From positions 15,373 through 79,372 of the forward strand of contig BTUM01000032.1 in NCBI GenBank assembly GCA_045863235.1: a DNA stretch of 64,000 bases. The letters are read 5' to 3'. Under the pieces are notes generated by a model. The model was not told the origin of the DNA and ran no database searches. It was given only the letters and a program-made list of their open reading frames with translations. A program made the position numbers and the translations under genes. This document shows, piece after piece, positions 24,287 through 32,305 of this stretch. The number at the start of each line of letters is the position of its first letter. Positions within the stretch are counted from its first letter, which is position 1. The stretch is from Candidatus Xenobia bacterium. GTDB taxonomy: Bacteria; Vulcanimicrobiota; Xenobia; Xenobiales; QWHO01.

Positions 24287-25333
24287 TCAGCGCGGGCTCC
24301 TCTTGCGAGGCGATTTGCGGAACAAGAAAACATACTCGTGCTTGAAGACGTAGAAGCCGCCGGCCAGCGCCCGGTAGCGCCACAGCTCCTTCTGGTGCCT
24401 CTTGCCGGCTGTGTCCTCGAAGTTCTTGACGACGATGCTCTTGAGCGAGAAACCCAGATTGCAGATCTCCTGCATACTCTGGAAGCCCAGCGGGATCCAC
24501 TCGCCCTCGGCATACTTGTCCCCGATGACCAGCACCAGGTAGCGACCCGCGTCCAGCACACGCGACACGTTGGAAACGACCGCGCGCAGCCGTTGCAGGA
24601 AATTTGTGACATCGGTGGCGCGGGACAGATCGTCGGGATTCTCGGAGAACTGGATGATGTCGAAGTAGGGGGGGTGCAGGATGGCCAGTTGCACCGAACT
24701 GGCGCCCACTGTCTTCAATTCTTGGGCCAGGTCGACCCGGCTCGAGTCGCCCTGGACGATGACCTGAGAAACACTGTGTGGATTAGGCTCGGACTTTATC
24801 AGTCCACGGGCGTGCTCGACCATGTCGGCCCGGAGCTCGACCCCAAGCGTGTGCCGCCCCAGCCGCTGGGCCTCGATGGGAGTGGTGCCCGAGCCGCAAA
24901 AGGGATCCAGGACCCACTCGCCCGCTCGGGTGTAGCGCTGGATCATCTGCTGGGGAATCTGGGGCACGAAGTTTCCCCAGTAGTCAGCCTTGTGCACGCC
25001 GGTCCCGTCACGTCGGGGGATGATCCAGAGGCTGTCGGTCTGGATCTCGGTGTACTCCTTCCAGCGATTCAAGTTGAGATCGCTGACCTCGGGAGTGCGC
25101 ACCACCGTCAGCCCCTTGATCAAGCGATCGACATAGTAATGAGCCCGTTCCAGTGTCTGGGAAGCCTGAATCTGCTTGAGCTCGCTCACCAGAAAGCGAT
25201 CGTCTTGCACCTGACGTGCCAGTTGCTCGACAGCTTTCTGGACTCCAGCCATGGCCGTCGTGCCGCGCACCTCCCGCAGGCGTGCCACCAGCTCGGAGGG
25301 GTTGTGGCGGTTATGAGGTTGAGGCTCCAACAT
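24287..25333 (-). CDS. Orphan N6/N4 amino-methyltransferase (DNA MTase-like)
   Basis: VLDPFCGSGTT (motif I) followed by HPPY (motif IV); KHEY near the C-terminus; no endonuclease nearby. Confidence 0.8.
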   Translation of the reverse strand: MLEPQPHNRHNPSELVARLREVRGTTAMAGVQKAVEQLARQVQDDRFLVSELKQIQASQTLERAHYYVDRLIKGLTVVRTPEVSDLNLNRWKEYTEIQTDSLWIIPRRDGTGVHKADYWGNFVPQIPQQMIQRYTRAGEWVLDPFCGSGTTPIEAQRLGRHTLGVELRADMVEHARGLIKSEPNPHSVSQVIVQGDSSRVDLAQELKTVGASSVQLAILHPPYFDIIQFSENPDDLSRATDVTNFLQRLRAVVSNVSRVLDAGRYLVLVIGDKYAEGEWIPLGFQSMQEICNLGFSLKSIVVKNFEDTAGKRHQKELWRYRALAGGFYVFKHEYVFLFRKSPRKRSPR

Positions 25334-25402
25334 CGAACAGTTGAGAAGAATTCCATGGGAATCCTTCGAACTCCTGTTCGAGAAAAAAGTTCATGGGCCT
25401 AC

Positions 25403-26143
25403 TTACAGGACGTTGACCTCAAACTTGGCCAGGTCGAAATTCAGGAACGGGAACTCGGGGGGGAGGTCGGGTTGGACGATGAAATCATTGAGGGGATCGT
25501 CGGGGAAGAACTGGGGAATCGGATCCTGGATGCCCAGCGACTTCTCCAGGGTCATCGTTTGCAGGGCGTTGCCATTGATGTCCGGACCCTGGCCCGGAGT
25601 GTCGAGCACGCGACCGATGAAGGATCCCTGGAAGTTATCGGTAGTGAGCACGTGGGCCGTAAAGCGAGTGGCAGAGATGAACTGGTTGAGGAGATTGTTG
25701 GGGTCGTTGGGATCGAGCACGATCTCCAGGCCCGTGCCATCGGTCGTCAAATTCCAGGCATTGTTCATGCTTCCCGCCAGGGTGAAGGTGAAGCCCGGAT
25801 TGGGGAGATTGGCCTGGCGGTGGTAGAAGTCGAGACTGCGACCGTCGAACCGGAGAAAATCGGTGAAGGTATCGATGTCGGTGATCTCGATCGGTTGCCC
25901 TGTGGCATTGAACAGGATAAGGTAGTACCCGACTCCGGAAGTGTCGATCCGGCCATTCGGGTTCACCCGCAGGGTGAAACGCAGCAGCGCAGGTGTCGCG
26001 TCAGGCTGCTGGGTGGTCGGGTTGGAGGAGGAAGGTCCGCTGGCGCAACCGGTTGACAGGATTGGCACGAGCAGGCAGGAACCGAGTGCGAGGCCCAGGG
26101 CCGCGCGGGATGTCCATGAGCGAAAGTAAGAAAACCAGGTCAT
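25403..26143 (-). CDS. Putative lipoprotein, hypothetical
   Basis: Hydrophobic leader ending LSTGC; divergent from lnt. Confidence 0.6.
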   Translation of the reverse strand: MTWFSYFRSWTSRAALGLALGSCLLVPILSTGCASGPSSSNPTTQQPDATPALLRFTLRVNPNGRIDTSGVGYYLILFNATGQPIEITDIDTFTDFLRFDGRSLDFYHRQANLPNPGFTFTLAGSMNNAWNLTTDGTGLEIVLDPNDPNNLLNQFISATRFTAHVLTTDNFQGSFIGRVLDTPGQGPDINGNALQTMTLEKSLGIQDPIPQFFPDDPLNDFIVQPDLPPEFPFLNFDLAKFEVNVL

Positions 26144-27651
26144 CAAAAGCCTCAGAAACCAGGAAACGATTGGGATTGCCCTTCGGGGCCGCCTGCCTTC
26201 TTGCCTTTCTCTCGGCATTCCTGCTGTATCTTGCCTTCCCGCATCCCCACATTTCAGGCTTCGTCTGGGTGGCCGCCCTCCCGTTCTATCTCGCCTGTCG
26301 CTTTCAGGGTCCGGTCCGGGGAGCTGTGCTCGGGCTCCTGTTTGGTTGCGCCTTCCAGTATTCGTTGCTATCCTGGGCCACCGTTTTTGGGACCGCCGCC
26401 CAGGTCGCCCTGGTGCTTTATAAGGCCGTCGCTCCCGCCCTCCTGGGCGCTCTTTTGGGCTCCTACCGTCCTCCCACTCCCCTTCATGGCGCCCTCTTTG
26501 GCGCGGCTGCCTGGGTGGGCATGGAGTACTTCCAGATCCTGGGTCCTCTGGGCATGACCTGGGGCATGCTGAGCCATACTCAGTCTCGAATTCTGCCCTG
26601 GATTCAGATCGGTGAGCTGTTTGGTCCCTGGGGACTTTCCTTCGCCATCGCCTTCTGGAATGCGGCCCTGGCTGAATTGTTCTGGCGACGCAAGCGAGCC
26701 CTTACGACGGTGGGTGCTGCGGCTGGCCTTCTGGCAGTCATCTTCTCCTACGGAATCGTGCGCCTGCAGCATCCATGGGGAAACGGCCATTCACTGACAT
26801 GGGGAGTGGTCCAGACCTCCATGCCCCAGGATCAGCGCTGGGACCCGAGCTTTCGCGAAGAGATCATGGGCCGGCTCGACCGGTTGACCCGAGAATCCGC
26901 CTCTCAGGGCGCGCGTCTAATTCTCTGGCCGGAGACCAGCGTGCCTTATCCTTTCTTTTTGGAGACCTGGCCCCTGCGCTCCCGCGTGGGCGGGCTGGCC
27001 CAGAGCCTGCAAAGCTTCATTCTGACCGGCTCCATCGAGCGCGCCTCCGAGCCCAACGCCACTCGCAACGTGGCCACCCTGGTCGCTCCTGACGGCGAGC
27101 TTCTGGCCACCGCCGAGAAAATCCGGCTGGTGCCATTCGGCGAGTATCTGCCGTTGCCCCGTTTCATGCGCGACTGGCCGATCTTCGACCGGGTCATGCG
27201 CTACGTTCCCGGCACGCAGCACGTCATTTTTCCCGACCCCACATCCTTTGGCGTTCTCATCTGCTACGAGTCCATGGTGCCTCACGAGCCGCGCAAGAAG
27301 GTCGAGCGTGGTGCCGGGGTGCTGGCTGTGATCACCAACGACGCCTGGTTTGGAAAGTCGTCGGCCGCCATGCACCACTTCGAGATGGCCATCATGCGGG
27401 CGGTGGAGATGCGCAGGCCGGTCGTCCAGTGCGGCAACAACGGTATCTCGGGCTTCATCCTTCCGACCGGCGAGGTGATGGTCGAGTCGGGTCTCGATGA
27501 AGTCGTTCAGTTGACCCGTGAGGTTCGGCCCGAGACCTACCGAACGATTTACAGCCGTACTGGCGATCTGCTGGCTTATCTGTGTCTGGCCATGATGCTC
27601 TGGCTCATCAGGTTGCAGTTGGGCGAGCGAACGCAATGCGTGAAGAGCTGA
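26116..27651 (+). CDS. lnt: Apolipoprotein N-acyltransferase
   Basis: Multiple TM segments; WPET, KIRLVPFGEY, ICYE, TNDAWFG, RAVE; start uncertain. Confidence 0.92.
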   Translation: MSESKKTRSSKASETRKRLGLPFGAACLLAFLSAFLLYLAFPHPHISGFVWVAALPFYLACRFQGPVRGAVLGLLFGCAFQYSLLSWATVFGTAAQVALVLYKAVAPALLGALLGSYRPPTPLHGALFGAAAWVGMEYFQILGPLGMTWGMLSHTQSRILPWIQIGELFGPWGLSFAIAFWNAALAELFWRRKRALTTVGAAAGLLAVIFSYGIVRLQHPWGNGHSLTWGVVQTSMPQDQRWDPSFREEIMGRLDRLTRESASQGARLILWPETSVPYPFFLETWPLRSRVGGLAQSLQSFILTGSIERASEPNATRNVATLVAPDGELLATAEKIRLVPFGEYLPLPRFMRDWPIFDRVMRYVPGTQHVIFPDPTSFGVLICYESMVPHEPRKKVERGAGVLAVITNDAWFGKSSAAMHHFEMAIMRAVEMRRPVVQCGNNGISGFILPTGEVMVESGLDEVVQLTREVRPETYRTIYSRTGDLLAYLCLAMMLWLIRLQLGERTQCVKS

Positions 27652-28472
27652 CCCGGCTTGAAAGAGTCTTCCTGGCGATGATCGCCCGGGCCCAATCTCT
27701 GACCCAGCTCGAGCAAACGAACCGACACATCTTTGGGCGACGTGGCCAGCTGACTCTTGCGCTGCGTTCGCTGCGCGATTGCCCGGAGAGGGAGCGACCG
27801 GCTCTGGGAAAGCTCGGCAACCGGATCAAGGAGAGCCTGCAACACGCCATCGGGCAGAGACGCGAGGAGTTGCGCCAGGTCAGCCAGGTCCAGCGCCTGG
27901 AGTTCGAGCAGCTTGATGTCACCCTGCCAGGCATTCGGCCCGTCAGTGGACGCCTTCATCCCCTGCGCGAGCTGGAAGCGGAAAGCGGTCACTGGCTTCG
28001 TCTGCAGGGCTTCCTGCCCGCGCGGGTTGGACCCCTGCCGGATCGGCTGGGGGAATTGAGTGGGCGGCGCTACGGCTCTCGGCTGGTCTGCAGCCCTGAA
28101 TGGGGAGGCTGGGGGCATCAGGAAGGGATGCCCACTCCTCCCGTCGACCCGGCCTGCGGACACCTGCTGGAGGCGATTGCCACGGGTGAGCAGTGGACTG
28201 TCGGTCAGCTCAAGGGCTGGCTGGAGACCTGGGGCAGGCAGTTCCTGGGCTATGTTTCGCTTCGATGCGTTCCCGGCTCGGTTACGTGGGCCAGCCCTTC
28301 GCTGCACCTGCTGGGGCCTTTCCGGGGGGGCTGGCTGGCGGTTGCCAGCGCCGGCCTGCTCGAGCACGGGGCCTGCCTGGCAATCTCTCTCGAGCGGGCC
28401 GCGGCCGTTCGCTACAATCTCGACCCGGGTGTCTTTCAATCCCTCGACTGGCGTTTCGTGGCTCAATTCTGA
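27636..28472 (+). CDS. PheS-like protein (PheRS alpha fold), catalytic motifs degenerate
   Basis: N-terminal coiled coil, LDVTLPG...GRLHP, LKGWL, LER..., C-terminal DWRFVAQF; lacks RTHTS, motif 2 and FPFTEPS; 278 aa. Confidence 0.8.
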   Translation: MREELTRLERVFLAMIARAQSLTQLEQTNRHIFGRRGQLTLALRSLRDCPERERPALGKLGNRIKESLQHAIGQRREELRQVSQVQRLEFEQLDVTLPGIRPVSGRLHPLRELEAESGHWLRLQGFLPARVGPLPDRLGELSGRRYGSRLVCSPEWGGWGHQEGMPTPPVDPACGHLLEAIATGEQWTVGQLKGWLETWGRQFLGYVSLRCVPGSVTWASPSLHLLGPFRGGWLAVASAGLLEHGACLAISLERAAAVRYNLDPGVFQSLDWRFVAQF

Positions 28473-30604
28473 TGCGAGTACCGTTTGTCTGGCTCAAGGA
28501 GTATGTCGAGATTTTCGAGCCCCTGACTCAGGTTGCCGAGGAAATCAGCTCGCTGGGCTACCCGGTGGCCGGGACCGGAACCGTGGGAGCACCCGTGCGC
28601 GGCGTTCTGGTGGGTCAGGTGAGCAGTATCGCGCCTCACCCCAAAGCCGATTTGATGAAGGTTTGCCAGATCGATCTCGGAGACGAAGGAGAAGCCCAGA
28701 TCGTGACCACGGCTGGGAACGTGCGCCTGGGGCAGAAAGTCGCTGCCGCCTTGCACGGAGCGGTTCTGGCCGGGGGAACTCGCATCAAGCGAGGGCGCTT
28801 GCGCGGGGTTCTCTCCGAGGGAATGCTGTGCTCGGCTGACGAGCTGGGTCTGTCGGCTCTCGACCTGCCCCACGAGCAGCGTCACGGACTCATCGAGATG
28901 CCCGAGCAGAGCGAGCCGGGAACTGATGTCATGGACCTGTTGGGCCTGGACCAACAGGTGATCCTGTTGACGCCCTGGCCGGAACGAAACCCCGGTGGGC
29001 TGATTGGACTCGCACGTGAGCTGGCGGTTCGGATGGAGCGAAGCCTCGAGAGCCCCTCTCTTGCTCCGGCCGAGACCAGCGCTACGGGCTGGTTCGAAGA
29101 GCCCGATCCGGCTGCCGTCTGCGAGCTCGGAGTCTGCCTGCTGCAGGGCGTCAAGCTCGAGCCTTCCCCGGCCTGGATGGCTCGTCGCTTGCGAGCAGCC
29201 GGGCTGCATACGGTCATGAACGTGCTCGACATCGTGCGCTACGTGATGGTGGAGACCGGTCAGCCCTTGCACGTCTATGATCTGGACCGACTGCGACCTC
29301 CGCTGAGTATGCGCCCAAGCACGCCGGGCGAGTCCCTGCGGCTTGGAGAGACGGTGCGCGAGCTTCCTCCTGGCACCTGGGTGGTCTGCGACGGGAGAGG
29401 CCCCGTAGCTGTTGCCGGTGTGGCTGTGGGCAGCGATTTTCAAGTGCATCCCCGGACCCGACGCGTACTGGTCAAGGCGGCTCGCTATCGGCCAGGCCTG
29501 GTAGAGGAGAACGGTCGCCTCCTGGGGGTCGCTACGGAGTCGTCGCGGCGCTTTGTGGCTGGCCCCCGGGGCAGCCACCTGACCCTGGCTCTGCAGCGCG
29601 CGAGCTGGTTGCTTCAGAGGCTGGCTCGGGGGCGATTGCAGGCCGTACAAAGCTGGCGCTGTGACGATCAACCCGAGTTTGAGCTCGACCCGGCCTTTCT
29701 CGAACGCCATCTCGGGCCTCTTGACTCGGGCTGGCTCGACCAGGCTCTGGTGGCCGCTGGTATCGGCTATCATCGAGTGGGCAGCCAGTTGCGAGTGAGC
29801 GTCTCGGCTCACCGGGTCCTGGAGGACCTGGTGCGTCTTCGCGGGGTGGACCGTCTCGAAGCAGTGCCTGCGACCCTGCGGGCCTCCCCAACCGATGAGC
29901 TGGATGTGCGACGTCGACTGGCGATGATGGGATTTTCGGAAGTGGTGTCCGGCTCTCTGCCTCAGCCCTGGTTGGGATTGCTCGAGCTGGCTGGTCGGCG
30001 CGGTCAGGACGAGCTAAGGCTGATGGAGCAGGTCGAGAGTGAGCTTTGTTTGCTGGTTTCGGGACACGATTCAGCCTATCTTCACTTGAAAGGTCTTCTT
30101 GAAATGCTTGCCGAACTCGCCCAGGCCGAGCTGTCTTTCGAGCCTGCCGAGTTGCCCTGGCTGCACCCGGGTAGCTCGGCGAAGATTAGCCTGGGTAATG
30201 CTCCTCTGGGCTGGTTGGGGGAGCCGCATCACGGGCACGAGGACCGGGTTCAATCGACCCTCGCGGTAGCACTCATCGACAAGGAGCGACTGGCTGCTCG
30301 AGCCCGCCCTCGGGGGCTCTTCAATCCGGATGAAGTCCGTTGGGTCGAGCGAGATCTTGCGGTGCTGGTGCCCGAGCAAGTCTGGGCCGGGAAGGTAGTC
30401 GACCAGGCCCGTCAGGCAGGGGGGGCCATGCTGGTTTCGATCCGGTGCTTCGACGTCTATCGAGGGAGCCAGATTCCCGAGGGATGGAAGAGTCTGGGGT
30501 TGAGGATCAGGTTGCAGTGCGATCGGGAGGCCGAGATCAAGTCCATTCTGGGCCGGATCCTGGGGCAACTGGAACAGAATCTTGGTGCTCGCTTGCGGGC
30601 TTGA
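28472..30604 (+). CDS. PheT-like protein (PheRS beta), shortened
   Basis: WLKEYV, HPKAD, LRGVLSEGMLCSADELG (B2), DIVRYVMVETGQPLHVYD (B3/4), RDLA...FDVYRG...KSL (B8); TGATG coupling with pheS-like; 710 aa. Confidence 0.85.
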   Translation: MRVPFVWLKEYVEIFEPLTQVAEEISSLGYPVAGTGTVGAPVRGVLVGQVSSIAPHPKADLMKVCQIDLGDEGEAQIVTTAGNVRLGQKVAAALHGAVLAGGTRIKRGRLRGVLSEGMLCSADELGLSALDLPHEQRHGLIEMPEQSEPGTDVMDLLGLDQQVILLTPWPERNPGGLIGLARELAVRMERSLESPSLAPAETSATGWFEEPDPAAVCELGVCLLQGVKLEPSPAWMARRLRAAGLHTVMNVLDIVRYVMVETGQPLHVYDLDRLRPPLSMRPSTPGESLRLGETVRELPPGTWVVCDGRGPVAVAGVAVGSDFQVHPRTRRVLVKAARYRPGLVEENGRLLGVATESSRRFVAGPRGSHLTLALQRASWLLQRLARGRLQAVQSWRCDDQPEFELDPAFLERHLGPLDSGWLDQALVAAGIGYHRVGSQLRVSVSAHRVLEDLVRLRGVDRLEAVPATLRASPTDELDVRRRLAMMGFSEVVSGSLPQPWLGLLELAGRRGQDELRLMEQVESELCLLVSGHDSAYLHLKGLLEMLAELAQAELSFEPAELPWLHPGSSAKISLGNAPLGWLGEPHHGHEDRVQSTLAVALIDKERLAARARPRGLFNPDEVRWVERDLAVLVPEQVWAGKVVDQARQAGGAMLVSIRCFDVYRGSQIPEGWKSLGLRIRLQCDREAEIKSILGRILGQLEQNLGARLRA

Positions 30605-30619
30605 AGGAAGGAGGAACGT

Positions 30620-31159
30620 ATGACCGGCCTCGATATGCTGCTGCTGATCTTGATCGTCGCGTTTATCTATCTCGGTTACCGCCGAGGCGTGATCGGCGAG
30701 GCATTCGATATCATTACCGGCATCGTGACGGGCATCGTCGGGGTCATCGTCTACGCTCCCCTGGGAAAGATGATCGATCAGTGGACCGAATGGGGAGTCG
30801 GCCCATCTCAATGGCTGGCTTTCTTTCTGGTCGGGTGCCCGGTGGCCGTGTGCCTGTTGATTCTCGGCATGCACCTCGATCGAATCGCCCGCGATGACAA
30901 GAAGATTCCCGACGCCATCATGGCCTATGGTGGGCTCTTCTTGAGCATCTTCAAGTCTCTGTTCGTGCTCTGGCTGGCCCTGATGCTGCTGAAAGCGAGT
31001 CCTCTTTACAGCAAAACGACCCGTGAAGAGTTTACCAATGCTCCCGTCGTCAATTTCATTGAAGATACTGGCGGAACAGCCGGGAAGGCCATCTTCGGCG
31101 TCATGGCACCGGGCAATGTCCAGAAGCAGTTGGGGCCCTTCCTGCAATCGGGATTCTAG
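30620..31159 (+). CDS. cvpA: CvpA/colicin V production family membrane protein
   Basis: LD.....YLGYRRGVIGE, later D...GG..S; located after pheT-like. Confidence 0.7.
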   Translation: MTGLDMLLLILIVAFIYLGYRRGVIGEAFDIITGIVTGIVGVIVYAPLGKMIDQWTEWGVGPSQWLAFFLVGCPVAVCLLILGMHLDRIARDDKKIPDAIMAYGGLFLSIFKSLFVLWLALMLLKASPLYSKTTREEFTNAPVVNFIEDTGGTAGKAIFGVMAPGNVQKQLGPFLQSGF

Positions 31160-31163
31160 GAGG

Positions 31164-31619
31164 ATGGCCTGCTGGTTGCTCAAGAGTGAGCCCGAGGTAT
31201 TCTCCATCGACGACCTTCAGCGCAAGAAGGTCGAGGGCTGGGACGGTGTGCGCAACTACCAGGCGCGCAACTATCTCAAGAGCATGCGCAAGGGCGATCA
31301 AGCCTTCTTCTATCATAGCCGTGAGAAGCCCCCGGGCATCGTGGGGATCTGCAAAGTAGTGCGCACTGCTTACCCTGACGATACGGCCAGCAATCCCAGG
31401 AGCCCCTATTATGATCCTCGCCACACTGCCGAAAACCCTGTCTGGTTTCGGGTGGACGTCGAGTTCGTGGAGAAGTTCTCGCGCTTGCTCTCCCTCGATG
31501 AGCTCAAGGCTACCCGTGGCCTGGAGCAGATGGTCGTGACGCGCAAGGGCAGTCGCCTTTCGGTGCAGCCAGTGACACCGAAGGAGTGGAAGACTGTGCT
31601 CAAGCTGCTCGAGTCGTGA
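31164..31619 (+). CDS. EVE domain protein
   Basis: WLLKSEP, WDGVRNYQARN, FYHS, YYDP, RLSVQPV. Confidence 0.95.
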   Translation: MACWLLKSEPEVFSIDDLQRKKVEGWDGVRNYQARNYLKSMRKGDQAFFYHSREKPPGIVGICKVVRTAYPDDTASNPRSPYYDPRHTAENPVWFRVDVEFVEKFSRLLSLDELKATRGLEQMVVTRKGSRLSVQPVTPKEWKTVLKLLES

Positions 31620-32305
31620 TCGAGCTGGTTCTGGTGCGCCACGCGCAGCCGATGTGGGAACCCGGTGGGCGGGCGGTGGACAACCCTGAGTTGACCGAGT
31701 TGGGACTGCAGCAGGCCAACCGGTTGGCAGAGTGGCTTTCGGGCGAGCACTTTGACGCCTTCTATTGCAGTCCCTTATTGCGTTGCCGCCAGACGGCCGC
31801 CCCTCTGGAGGCCCTCTGGCGGCGCTCGTGCACCATTTTGAGCTGGTTGGAGGAGATCAGGCTGCCCACCCTGGAGGGCCAACCATCCGCCCAGGTGCAC
31901 GAGTTTCTGGCTCAAGTTCGAGCCCGCGACCTGGAAGATTGGTGGGAGGGGGCTCCAGGCGGGGAGTCCTTTCGCCACTTTCACGAGCGAGTTGTGGGTG
32001 GTCTGGAGCCCCTGCTGACTCGCGACCATCGCGCGGAGCTGCACTCCGAGGCTTCCTACCGACTGTGGCAGGTACCTTCGGAAAGCGAGCGCATTCTGGT
32101 GGTGGCCCACGGGGGCACGATCGCTGTCATGCTCAGCTTCTTGCTCGGAATCGAGCCGGTTCCCTGGGAGTGGGAGCGTTTCAAAGTCGGCTGGTGTGGC
32201 CTGTCGGTCGTACGCTCGGTCGAACTGGCTACGGGAGCTCTGTGGTCTCTGACCAGTTTCAATGCCCGCGGCCACCTGGCCGGGCTACCCGACCCATGGG
32301 GTTAA
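31616..32305 (+). CDS. Histidine phosphatase family protein
   Basis: LVRHAQ, SPLLRCRQTA, GGES, VAHGG. Confidence 0.85.
   Translation: MIELVLVRHAQPMWEPGGRAVDNPELTELGLQQANRLAEWLSGEHFDAFYCSPLLRCRQTAAPLEALWRRSCTILSWLEEIRLPTLEGQPSAQVHEFLAQVRARDLEDWWEGAPGGESFRHFHERVVGGLEPLLTRDHRAELHSEASYRLWQVPSESERILVVAHGGTIAVMLSFLLGIEPVPWEWERFKVGWCGLSVVRSVELATGALWSLTSFNARGHLAGLPDPWG

Follow-up and report, generated by a model that had tools for sequence, protein, structure and literature searches.

The lnt-cvpA locus

The genome of Candidatus Xenobia bacterium (GenBank assembly GCA_045863235.1; host genome, G000) carries, in a stretch of 64,000 nucleotides of contig BTUM01000032.1 that is referred to here as the window, two adjacent genes resembling those for the alpha and the beta subunit of phenylalanyl-tRNA synthetase (PheRS), namely the alpha-like pseudo-PheS P0001 and the beta-like pseudo-PheT P0002, which together are called the dead pair. 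Comparison with related genomes shows that the pair, as far as can be read from sequence, is of native origin, was replaced by another PheRS, has lost its aminoacylation, editing and Mg sites, evolves under purifying selection and keeps residues that contact tRNA-Phe. The pair and the genes that flank it are arranged as follows:

26122..27651, + strand: lnt (apolipoprotein N-acyltransferase), adjoining the ancestral pheST slot upstream; the start codon is our choice
27636..28472, + strand: pseudo-PheS P0001, 278 aa, with intact coiled coil and linker and a reduced class II core that lacks the residues binding ATP and Phe
28472..30604, + strand: pseudo-PheT P0002, 710 aa, translationally coupled to P0001 by TGATG
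30620..31159, + strand: cvpA-family gene, adjoining the ancestral pheST slot downstream

An initial sequence-only reading had described both open reading frames as uninterrupted, coupled by TGATG and placed before cvpA, and this was borne out; in addition, the end of lnt (27651) overlaps the start of P0001 (27636). Chance or assembly error can be excluded, since the same open 278-aa alpha is found at full length in 4/4 of the other genomes of the genus (96, 94, 92 and 74%) and the missing part has no match in any other frame. A compensated frameshift behind the odd middle of alpha was likewise considered and rejected, as a profile of 25 canonical alphas was empty in the other two forward frames of both G000 and G004. 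A promoter and terminator scan of 25300-31800 gave one promoter-like site against 0.9 expected and nothing informative, and four runs labelled as RNA, available as contigs only, gave low and patchy cover over genes of both strands, in which RNA and DNA are indistinguishable.

Lost and retained features of the two subunits

P0001 was aligned with 25 canonical PheS of the same phylum and with that of E. coli, whose numbering is used for motif residues. Pfam Phe_tRNA-synt_N matched with an E value of 1e-14, tRNA-synt_2d reached 17.9 bits, below its cut-off of 19.8, and TIGR00468 (pheS) gave 37.9 bits, failing its cut-off of 237.45. The segments of alpha concerned are:

27636..27911, + strand: coiled coil, residues 1-92; R54 and N62 kept, with 7/8 canonical invariants, the eighth being K or R
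28026..28163, + strand: remodelled segment, residues 131-176, standing where the 3'-end gate and motif 2 were
28281..28301, + strand: VTWASPS replacing FPFTEPS (Phe pocket) in the alignment
28368..28397, + strand: GACLAISLER replacing motif 3 GFAFGxGxER; E-R kept, small residues of the pocket floor replaced

The RTxTS motif, Y194-R195 and the motif-2 residues H202 and F206 fall in gaps of P0001, and the motif-2 Arg, His and Phe together with RTxTS are gapped in 5/5 and 9/9 dead rows and invariant in the canonical ones. Other positions are replaced (Q208L, F248V/T, F250W, A294C/V and G298S/A, and also T251, E252 and E268), with H207, E210, E300 and R301 remaining. By motif mapping, the lost positions include most of the Phe- and adenylate-binding residues of M. 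tuberculosis PheRS (PMC8136816). P0001 retains the coiled coil, DVTLPG, LHP and D.RF..QF, and the alignment agrees with the initial reading on both the altered and the retained motifs. The remodelled segment has lineage-specific invariants of its own (R144, G147, R149, G157-G-W-G-H161, P172 and G175). Modelling of the alpha core still yields the fold of a class II PheS core, with a TM of 0.78 over 164 residues; AlphaFold run with shallow alignments gave a mean pLDDT of 47.5 and was confident at residues 1-84 only, a low confidence that does not speak for unfolding. Canonical PheS of the class (e.g., L024:832-1857, - strand) also carries a CxxC...CxxC insert, which is deleted in the dead alpha (window 28310-28330).

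That the pair could be a very divergent yet active PheRS we consider highly improbable: the class II fold is kept, as are H207, E210, E300 and R301, but the motif-2 Arg, RTxTS, H202 and F206 are deleted, Q208, F248, F250, E252 and E268 are replaced, and the genome holds a complete second PheRS. The dead aminoacylation site proposed from the letters is thus upheld by the motif-2 and RTxTS gaps, the replaced Phe pocket and the presence of that second enzyme.

The domains of beta are laid out as follows:

28592..28927, + strand: B2 OB fold, residues 41-152, the best-kept large domain; 13/15 invariants, 86/112 residues identical to the distant beta P0016
29072..29647, + strand: B3/B4, residues 201-392; same fold, but with switched editing residues and a net charge of +9 to +12
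29648..29875, + strand: B5, residues 393-468; acidic Mg-binding motif partly deleted, 4/14 invariants kept
29876..30316, + strand: B6/B7 catalytic-like module, residues 469-615, some 50 residues below canonical length
30317..30601, + strand: B8 anticodon-binding domain, residues 616-710; D628, F660, D661, Y663, S674 and R709 kept

Pfam matched B2, B3/4 and B8 in P0002, and B6/7 weakly, leaving B5 unmatched, and the protein failed the TIGR00472 cut-off (376.8 bits, with 402.65 required). Erosion or deletion of the B5 Mg region and of B6/7 had been suspected and is confirmed: D454 and D460 lie within the B5 deletion, E463 is kept and E464 is D or E, and B6/7 has 151 residues versus 204 in one canonical relative. 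In B8, a 4-residue deletion takes out the T-L invariants. AlphaFold with a shallow alignment gave a beta pLDDT of 59.4, and a fold search with the beta model returned only PheT.

It had further been claimed that beta keeps B2, the B3/4 editing module and B8, which holds for the domains and folds but not for the editing site, where 4/7 residues are replaced. The B3/B4 fold is retained (Atlas model TM 0.94 to PheT models), and so is P263. In PheRS, C75 falls to R244, the catalytic waters to N254 and T354, the aminoacyl group to H265, the Tyr hydroxyl to E334 and access to the pocket to G318 and A356, G318W being the standard editing-deficient mutant (PMC8599791). E. coli R244, N254, G318 and E334 read H246, R256, V319 and K335 in P0002; the four are switched in 7/7 dead betas and invariant in 25/25 canonical relatives, and the switched residues show synonymous variation only across the five genomes of the genus. 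The remaining positions (H265 as H267, T354 as T/S355, A356 as S357) are all as in the relatives. B3/B4 carries a net charge of +9 to +12 in the seven dead betas versus -3 to +4 in the 25 canonical ones (-1 to +3 in the six that are GC-rich), and six other beta segments, whose charge overlaps the canonical ranges or nearly so, show no comparably clean shift. The four fixed switches are suggestive of a new site and fall short of proof, since the dead clade is invariant at about 43% of beta positions anyway.

These data bear on the possibility that the pair is a trans-editing factor for mischarged tRNA-Phe, perhaps with a changed amino-acid specificity, to which we give little credence. Its B3/B4 fold, P263, H265 and T/S354 would suit the task, and a basic pocket could accommodate an acidic aminoacyl group, but E334 has become Lys, N254 Arg, R244 His and G318 Val (roles per PMC8599791), and the working enzyme has a B3/4 of its own, with a free-standing B3/4 gene on C125 in addition. 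The specific suggestion of trans-editing of Tyr-tRNA-Phe, made on the initial inspection, is therefore not retained, given the replacement of these four residues and the B3/4 of the working beta.

Residues that contact tRNA were also compared. In M. tuberculosis PheRS, Asp745, Phe777, Asp778, Phe780 and Arg830 of B8 contact the anticodon (G34/A36), and Arg56 and Asn64 of alpha contact the D/T loops (PMC8136816). The B8 counterparts D628, F660, D661, Y663 and R709 are invariant in 9/9 aligned rows, and R54 and N62 of alpha, which correspond to Arg56 and Asn64 with an offset of 2, in 27/27 rows; Arg45 and Asp37 find no identical counterpart in P0001 at the same offset. When canonical invariants were scored against 24 and 25 canonical rows (truncated rows dropped), alpha was found to keep 7/8 in the coiled coil, 5/5 in the linker and 19/66 in the core, and beta 4/4 in B1a, 13/15 in B2, 2/5 in B1b, 22/34 in B3/4, 4/14 in B5, 7/11 in B6/7 and 5/8 in B8. 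The best-kept modules include ones that the archaeal type of PheRS has not, namely B8 (PMC3275996) and also B2 and the coiled coil, which were unseen in the host's archaeal-type subunits P0003 and P0004.

For the alpha core with B5-B7, a 2+2 model reached 0.50 versus 0.00 for the best of three controls, a weak result, with at least 31% of contacts common to the runs and a partner pLDDT of at least 59. The mark was reached by 116/157 solved pairs and 2/215 mismatched pairs, and scores of 0.60 or less among those that passed belonged to 18/157 solved pairs and to both mismatched pairs; moreover, the score may reflect likeness only, because the alignments included canonical rows and complexes of this kind have been solved.

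A second PheRS and the fate of the native one

In total, 61 genomes were compared, among them those of the family of the host genus (f1), of its sister family (f2) and of a family with canonical PheS (f3), all of the same order. The host genome (97.6% complete, 2.6% contamination) matched the PheRS core family once, on contig C37, where two genes form an archaeal-type enzyme:

C37:59742-61271, - strand: archaeal-type alpha P0003, 509 aa, passing PRK04172 (533 bits versus 350)
C37:57922-59751, - strand: archaeal-type beta P0004, 609 aa, passing pheT_arch (491 bits versus 283)

The motifs of P0003/P0004 are complete (RTHTT, FRRE, HQVDG, FPYTEPS and WGLGLERL), and P0004 has its own B3/4. When the canonical bacterial pair of a relative was used as query, only the dead pair and the C37 loci were found in the genome. 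A second canonical pheS/pheT had been put forward as something to look for; a second working PheRS does exist, although it is of the archaeal type and not the bacterial canonical one. The archaeal-type alpha occurs in 3/4 of the other genus genomes (87-96%), the miss being a genome that is 65% complete, so that the working enzyme is present in 4/5 genomes of the genus, host included; orthologues at this level exclude contamination as the origin of the pair on C37. It also occurs in 15/16 f2 genomes, with 62-67% identity where full length.

Some further observations concern these genes. Contig C125 holds a free-standing B3/4-domain gene of 203 aa (L004:1390-2001, - strand), above the Pfam cut-off, which may be a separate trans-editing factor. 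Near its N terminus, at residues ~46-69 (L003:547-2376, - strand), P0004 has an insert containing two CxxC pairs that resembles a zinc finger by eye. Families f13 and f14 of this phylum (G057, G051, G052 and G058; L086-L089) have another archaeal-type PheRS, 33-35% identical to P0003, whose separate branch marks them, on this phylogenetic evidence, as an independent replacement.

In the RpoB tree (13 genomes), f1 and f2 are sisters (support 98) and f3 lies outside. The archaeal-type alphas of f1 and f2 form one clade in a FastTree phylogeny, joined by single rows from Myxococcota and Pseudomonadota; Acidobacteriota and Planctomycetota are adjacent to it, and Thermoplasmata lie outside. The simplest reading of these trees would be that the archaeal-type PheRS was acquired once, before the f1/f2 split, the donor not being fixed. 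As to the bacterial enzyme, PheS of canonical length is present in 19/19 f3 genomes, the alpha query had no match in 16/16 f2 genomes, and the dead-core profile matches 5/44 genomes of the class, all in the host genus.

The order lnt-pheS-pheT-cvpA was found in 3/6 f3 loci examined (G037, G039 and G030), and judging from this comparison the slot is ancestral. At 16/16 f2 cvpA loci, neither pheS nor pheT lies within the 1.5-kb flanks; lnt abuts cvpA in six (genus g4, 6/6) and a divergent upstream gene does so in ten. The sister family deleted the old pair after the replacement. A canonical-looking pheT 3' fragment of f2 genome G025 (L101:7676-8769, at the end of contig C42) was rejected as a relic, as it has an N gap, lies off the cvpA locus and looks foreign or misjoined. 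In f2 genera g2 and g5 (L127-L134, L115 and L120), lnt is also not at the cvpA locus.

In a beta tree of 39 rows (the truncated G001 and seven near-identical f3 rows were excluded), the seven dead betas form one clade, on a stem of 1.41 changes per site, that is sister to the canonical f3 PheT of the same order with support of 100/99. From this tree and the ancestral gene slot, the dead pair is identified as the lineage's own bacterial-type pheS/pheT in its ancestral place.

Close database relatives of both dead subunits belong, by source name, to Candidatus Eremiobacterota. Six more alphas (73-93% over full length, 277-278 aa) and six more betas (56-92%) show the same lesions, some of them overlapping the compared genomes, and the partial alpha P0077, at 48% identity, has the same deletions and the segment WGGWGHxEG..P.DP..GH. 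The dead-PheS profile searched against 1.84 billion representatives gave two matches below 1e-30, both in the dead clade, and the other listed matches were mainly to the coiled coil (three of them were inspected).

The host tRNA-Phe is relevant to one explanation of this coexistence, in which the dead pair would join the archaeal-type enzyme or hand tRNA to it, lending its coiled coil and B8 while the foreign subunits do the chemistry. In PheRS, recognition of the tRNA is the task of one alpha-beta unit, and its acylation and editing that of the other (PMC8136816), and SLIMP, a SerRS-like protein of invertebrate mitochondria, plays this part for SerRS2 via its retained coiled coil (PMC10570016). 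Thirty tRNA-Phe loci were read at position 20 (36/40 genomes gave a match), and U20 was found in 3/3 f1, 15/15 f2 and 12/12 f3 loci, which rejects an identity switch at this position. The U20 kept by the host tRNA-Phe, when archaeal and bacterial PheRS-tRNA pairs are said not to cross-react (PMC3275996), speaks for a helper, as do the dead alpha core being the most constrained part and the T-stem of f1 (GCCAG, 3/3), which resembles that of f3 (CCCAG or ACCAG, 12/12) and not that of f2 (GGCGG or GCCGG, 15/15). We nevertheless find such a helper rather unlikely, as the f1 archaeal-type alpha shows no lost domain relative to f2, unlike SerRS2-alpha, a near-identical tRNA is charged in f2 without the pair, and the T-stem difference is a single event.

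Other peculiarities of tRNA genes were seen. In f3 genus g3 (8 genomes, L156-L163), the tRNA-Phe T-loop reads TCCGAAT instead of TTCRANT, and G016 has three tRNA-Phe matches 215 bases apart. ARAGORN reported on G000 contigs C2, C4, C8, C12, C23 and C51 long tRNAs of 91-97 nt whose anticodons are unusual (Arg-GCG, Val-AAC, Gly-ACC and Ala-AGC), together with an odd second Tyr tRNA and a SeC tRNA, all of which are possibly false.

Selection and possible functions of the pair

No stop or frameshift interrupts the pair in 5/5 genus genomes, one beta (G001) being cut by a contig end. Codon-model omega was 0.051 for alpha and 0.101 for beta, with 0.017-0.079 for the controls, of which 8 were run of 14 aligned genes: pcrA 0.017, archaeal-type alpha 0.022, leuS 0.024, methyltransferase 0.035, cvpA 0.041, lnt 0.062, and two others 0.075 and 0.079. 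Pairwise dN/dS versus G000 was 0.054-0.086 (G001-G003) and 0.18 (G004) for alpha, and 0.089-0.128 (G001-G003) and 0.25 (G004) for beta, similar to lnt and cvpA, with dS up to 1.15 at a dN of 0.20, and all eight bootstrap 95% intervals end below 0.31. All domains are constrained, most so the dead alpha core, B1 and B2. By these measures the dead pair is not a pseudogene; its rate relative to RpoB and its GC3, both given below, mark it as an ordinary accessory gene, not a core one. Orthologues are open, and selective retention over random decay, as initially proposed, is the outcome. Elsewhere in the window, a gene at 24287-25333 (- strand) with DPFCGSG and HPPY motifs, which we take to be DNA-methyltransferase-like, is conserved in the genus (omega 0.035).

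A relic in slow decay, held only by weak pressure such as the cost of folding or an operon link with lnt and cvpA, is improbable on the same data. It would account for an omega and a rate above those of true housekeeping genes, for a GC3 of 0.71-0.74 when the working pair has 0.88, and for the clean loss in f2; yet no stop or frameshift is found in the five genomes nor in the six alpha and six beta database proteins (partly overlapping), dS exceeds dN as given above, and coupling of lnt to cvpA needs no pair, since f2 genus g4 joins the two directly in 6/6 genomes.

A new function away from tRNA-Phe, be it on another nucleic acid, a small anionic ligand, a protein, or new chemistry at WGGWGHxEG..DP..GH, is unlikely in our view, though with some weight. 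The dead clade has invariants that differ from the canonical state at 43 positions of alpha and 55 of beta, WGGWGHxEG is still present in P0077 despite its 48% identity, and the long stem of the clade, the basic B3/B4 and the strongly kept B2 all fit. However, many of the new invariants reflect no more than shared ancestry, since 108/278 alpha and 301/700 beta positions are invariant overall in the dead clade; every module, the coiled coil and B8 among them, persists along with its tRNA contacts; adenylation chemistry is unlikely, because the motif-2 Arg is lost; and no new gene has joined the locus.

Specific, non-catalytic binding of tRNA-Phe as the selected function of the pair has, on the sequence evidence, about an even chance of being correct, and a preference for uncharged tRNA roughly half of that. 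The bacterial PheRS would have become redundant once the archaeal-type enzyme was acquired, and then been remodelled into a tRNA-Phe-binding complex. Alpha and beta would still assemble, B8 would read G34 of the anticodon, the coiled coil would hold the D/T-loop elbow, and the blocked and now basic former editing cleft may take the tRNA 3' end, probably without amino acid, so that the complex could buffer or hold, escort or report uncharged tRNA-Phe. In its fullest form, a displaced heterotetramer rebuilt into a reader of uncharged tRNA-Phe or a tRNA presenter for the foreign enzyme, with its two catalytic clefts both shut and recharged to suit RNA and anticodon reading kept, the proposal is tentative.

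Several findings weigh against tRNA-Phe binding as the selected function. B8 has lost 3/8 invariants, and those kept may serve the fold. Rates are at their lowest in the dead alpha core (0.05-0.12), B1 and B2, and neither B8 (0.08-0.30) nor the coiled coil (0.05-0.19) is among the slowest parts. Within the genus, the dead beta evolves at 10.4 times the RpoB rate versus 1.9-3.4 times for canonical PheT pairs, which amounts to a 3-5 fold relaxation of constraint. The sister family has the same archaeal-type enzyme (15/16) and the same tRNA-Phe (U20, GAA), yet no pair (16/16), and lives without it, so the function of the pair is dispensable. Finally, the evidence comes from one clade of single origin.

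HisZ has lost its anticodon domain. Like the dead pair, it is a bacterial class II paralogue without adenylation, used as a regulator (PMC5388404, PMC9437257), but it regulates HisG through histidine, whereas the dead pair has given up its amino-acid pockets and still has the tRNA modules. SLIMP is closer in having a dead class II core, a kept coiled coil, fast yet conserved evolution and a working enzyme alongside (PMC10570016, PMC9437257); it differs in having arisen by duplication and in being the obligate partner of a crippled SerRS2, whereas here a complete foreign enzyme took the place of a native one with two subunits, and a sister family lives without the pair. Halobacterial LeuRS2 and Sulfolobales LeuRS-I are likewise second copies with reduced or no charging, kept tRNA affinity and a role described as unknown (PMC9437257), although they are class I and single-chain, and LeuRS-I still makes adenylate, while the dead pair descends from a heterotetramer and both its sites are gone. 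In Spirochaetaceae, the bacterial PheRS was replaced by the archaeal form (PMC3191353), an end state that f2 resembles; the available part of that paper speaks of replacement and mentions no retained native copy. From bacterial (alpha-beta)2 PheRS itself (3PCO, 1EIY, 7K98) the dead pair is a direct descendant, with the same domain order, gene order and tRNA-contact residues, which has lost the synthetic site, the editing site and the B5 Mg motif, falls below the family cut-offs and is shorter in both subunits (alpha 278 versus ~342 aa, beta 710 versus ~785-805 aa). By analogy, the best reading likens the dead pair to a tRNA-binding pseudo-synthetase of the SLIMP/LeuRS2 kind, with a dead site, conserved, beside a working enzyme.

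We found no publication on a dead PheRS pair in a largely open-access literature, supplements excluded, where the tables of aminoacyl-tRNA synthetase paralogues of PMC5388404 may bear on the matter. The available parts of PMC5388404, PMC11580382 and PMC3275996 mention no such pair, and most of Table 1 of PMC9437257 has no PheRS row. The distant beta P0016, named phenylalanine--tRNA ligase subunit beta by its source, stands as a warning for annotation.

Within one order, one essential enzyme has met three fates, being kept in f3, deleted after replacement in f2, and retained but disarmed in f1. This constitutes a natural experiment on the residual use of a synthetase once charging and proofreading are taken over, and it bears on the non-catalytic roles of bacterial PheRS, on the job of its dispensable B2 domain, and on the way in which a synthetase of archaeal type manages with a bacterial tRNA.

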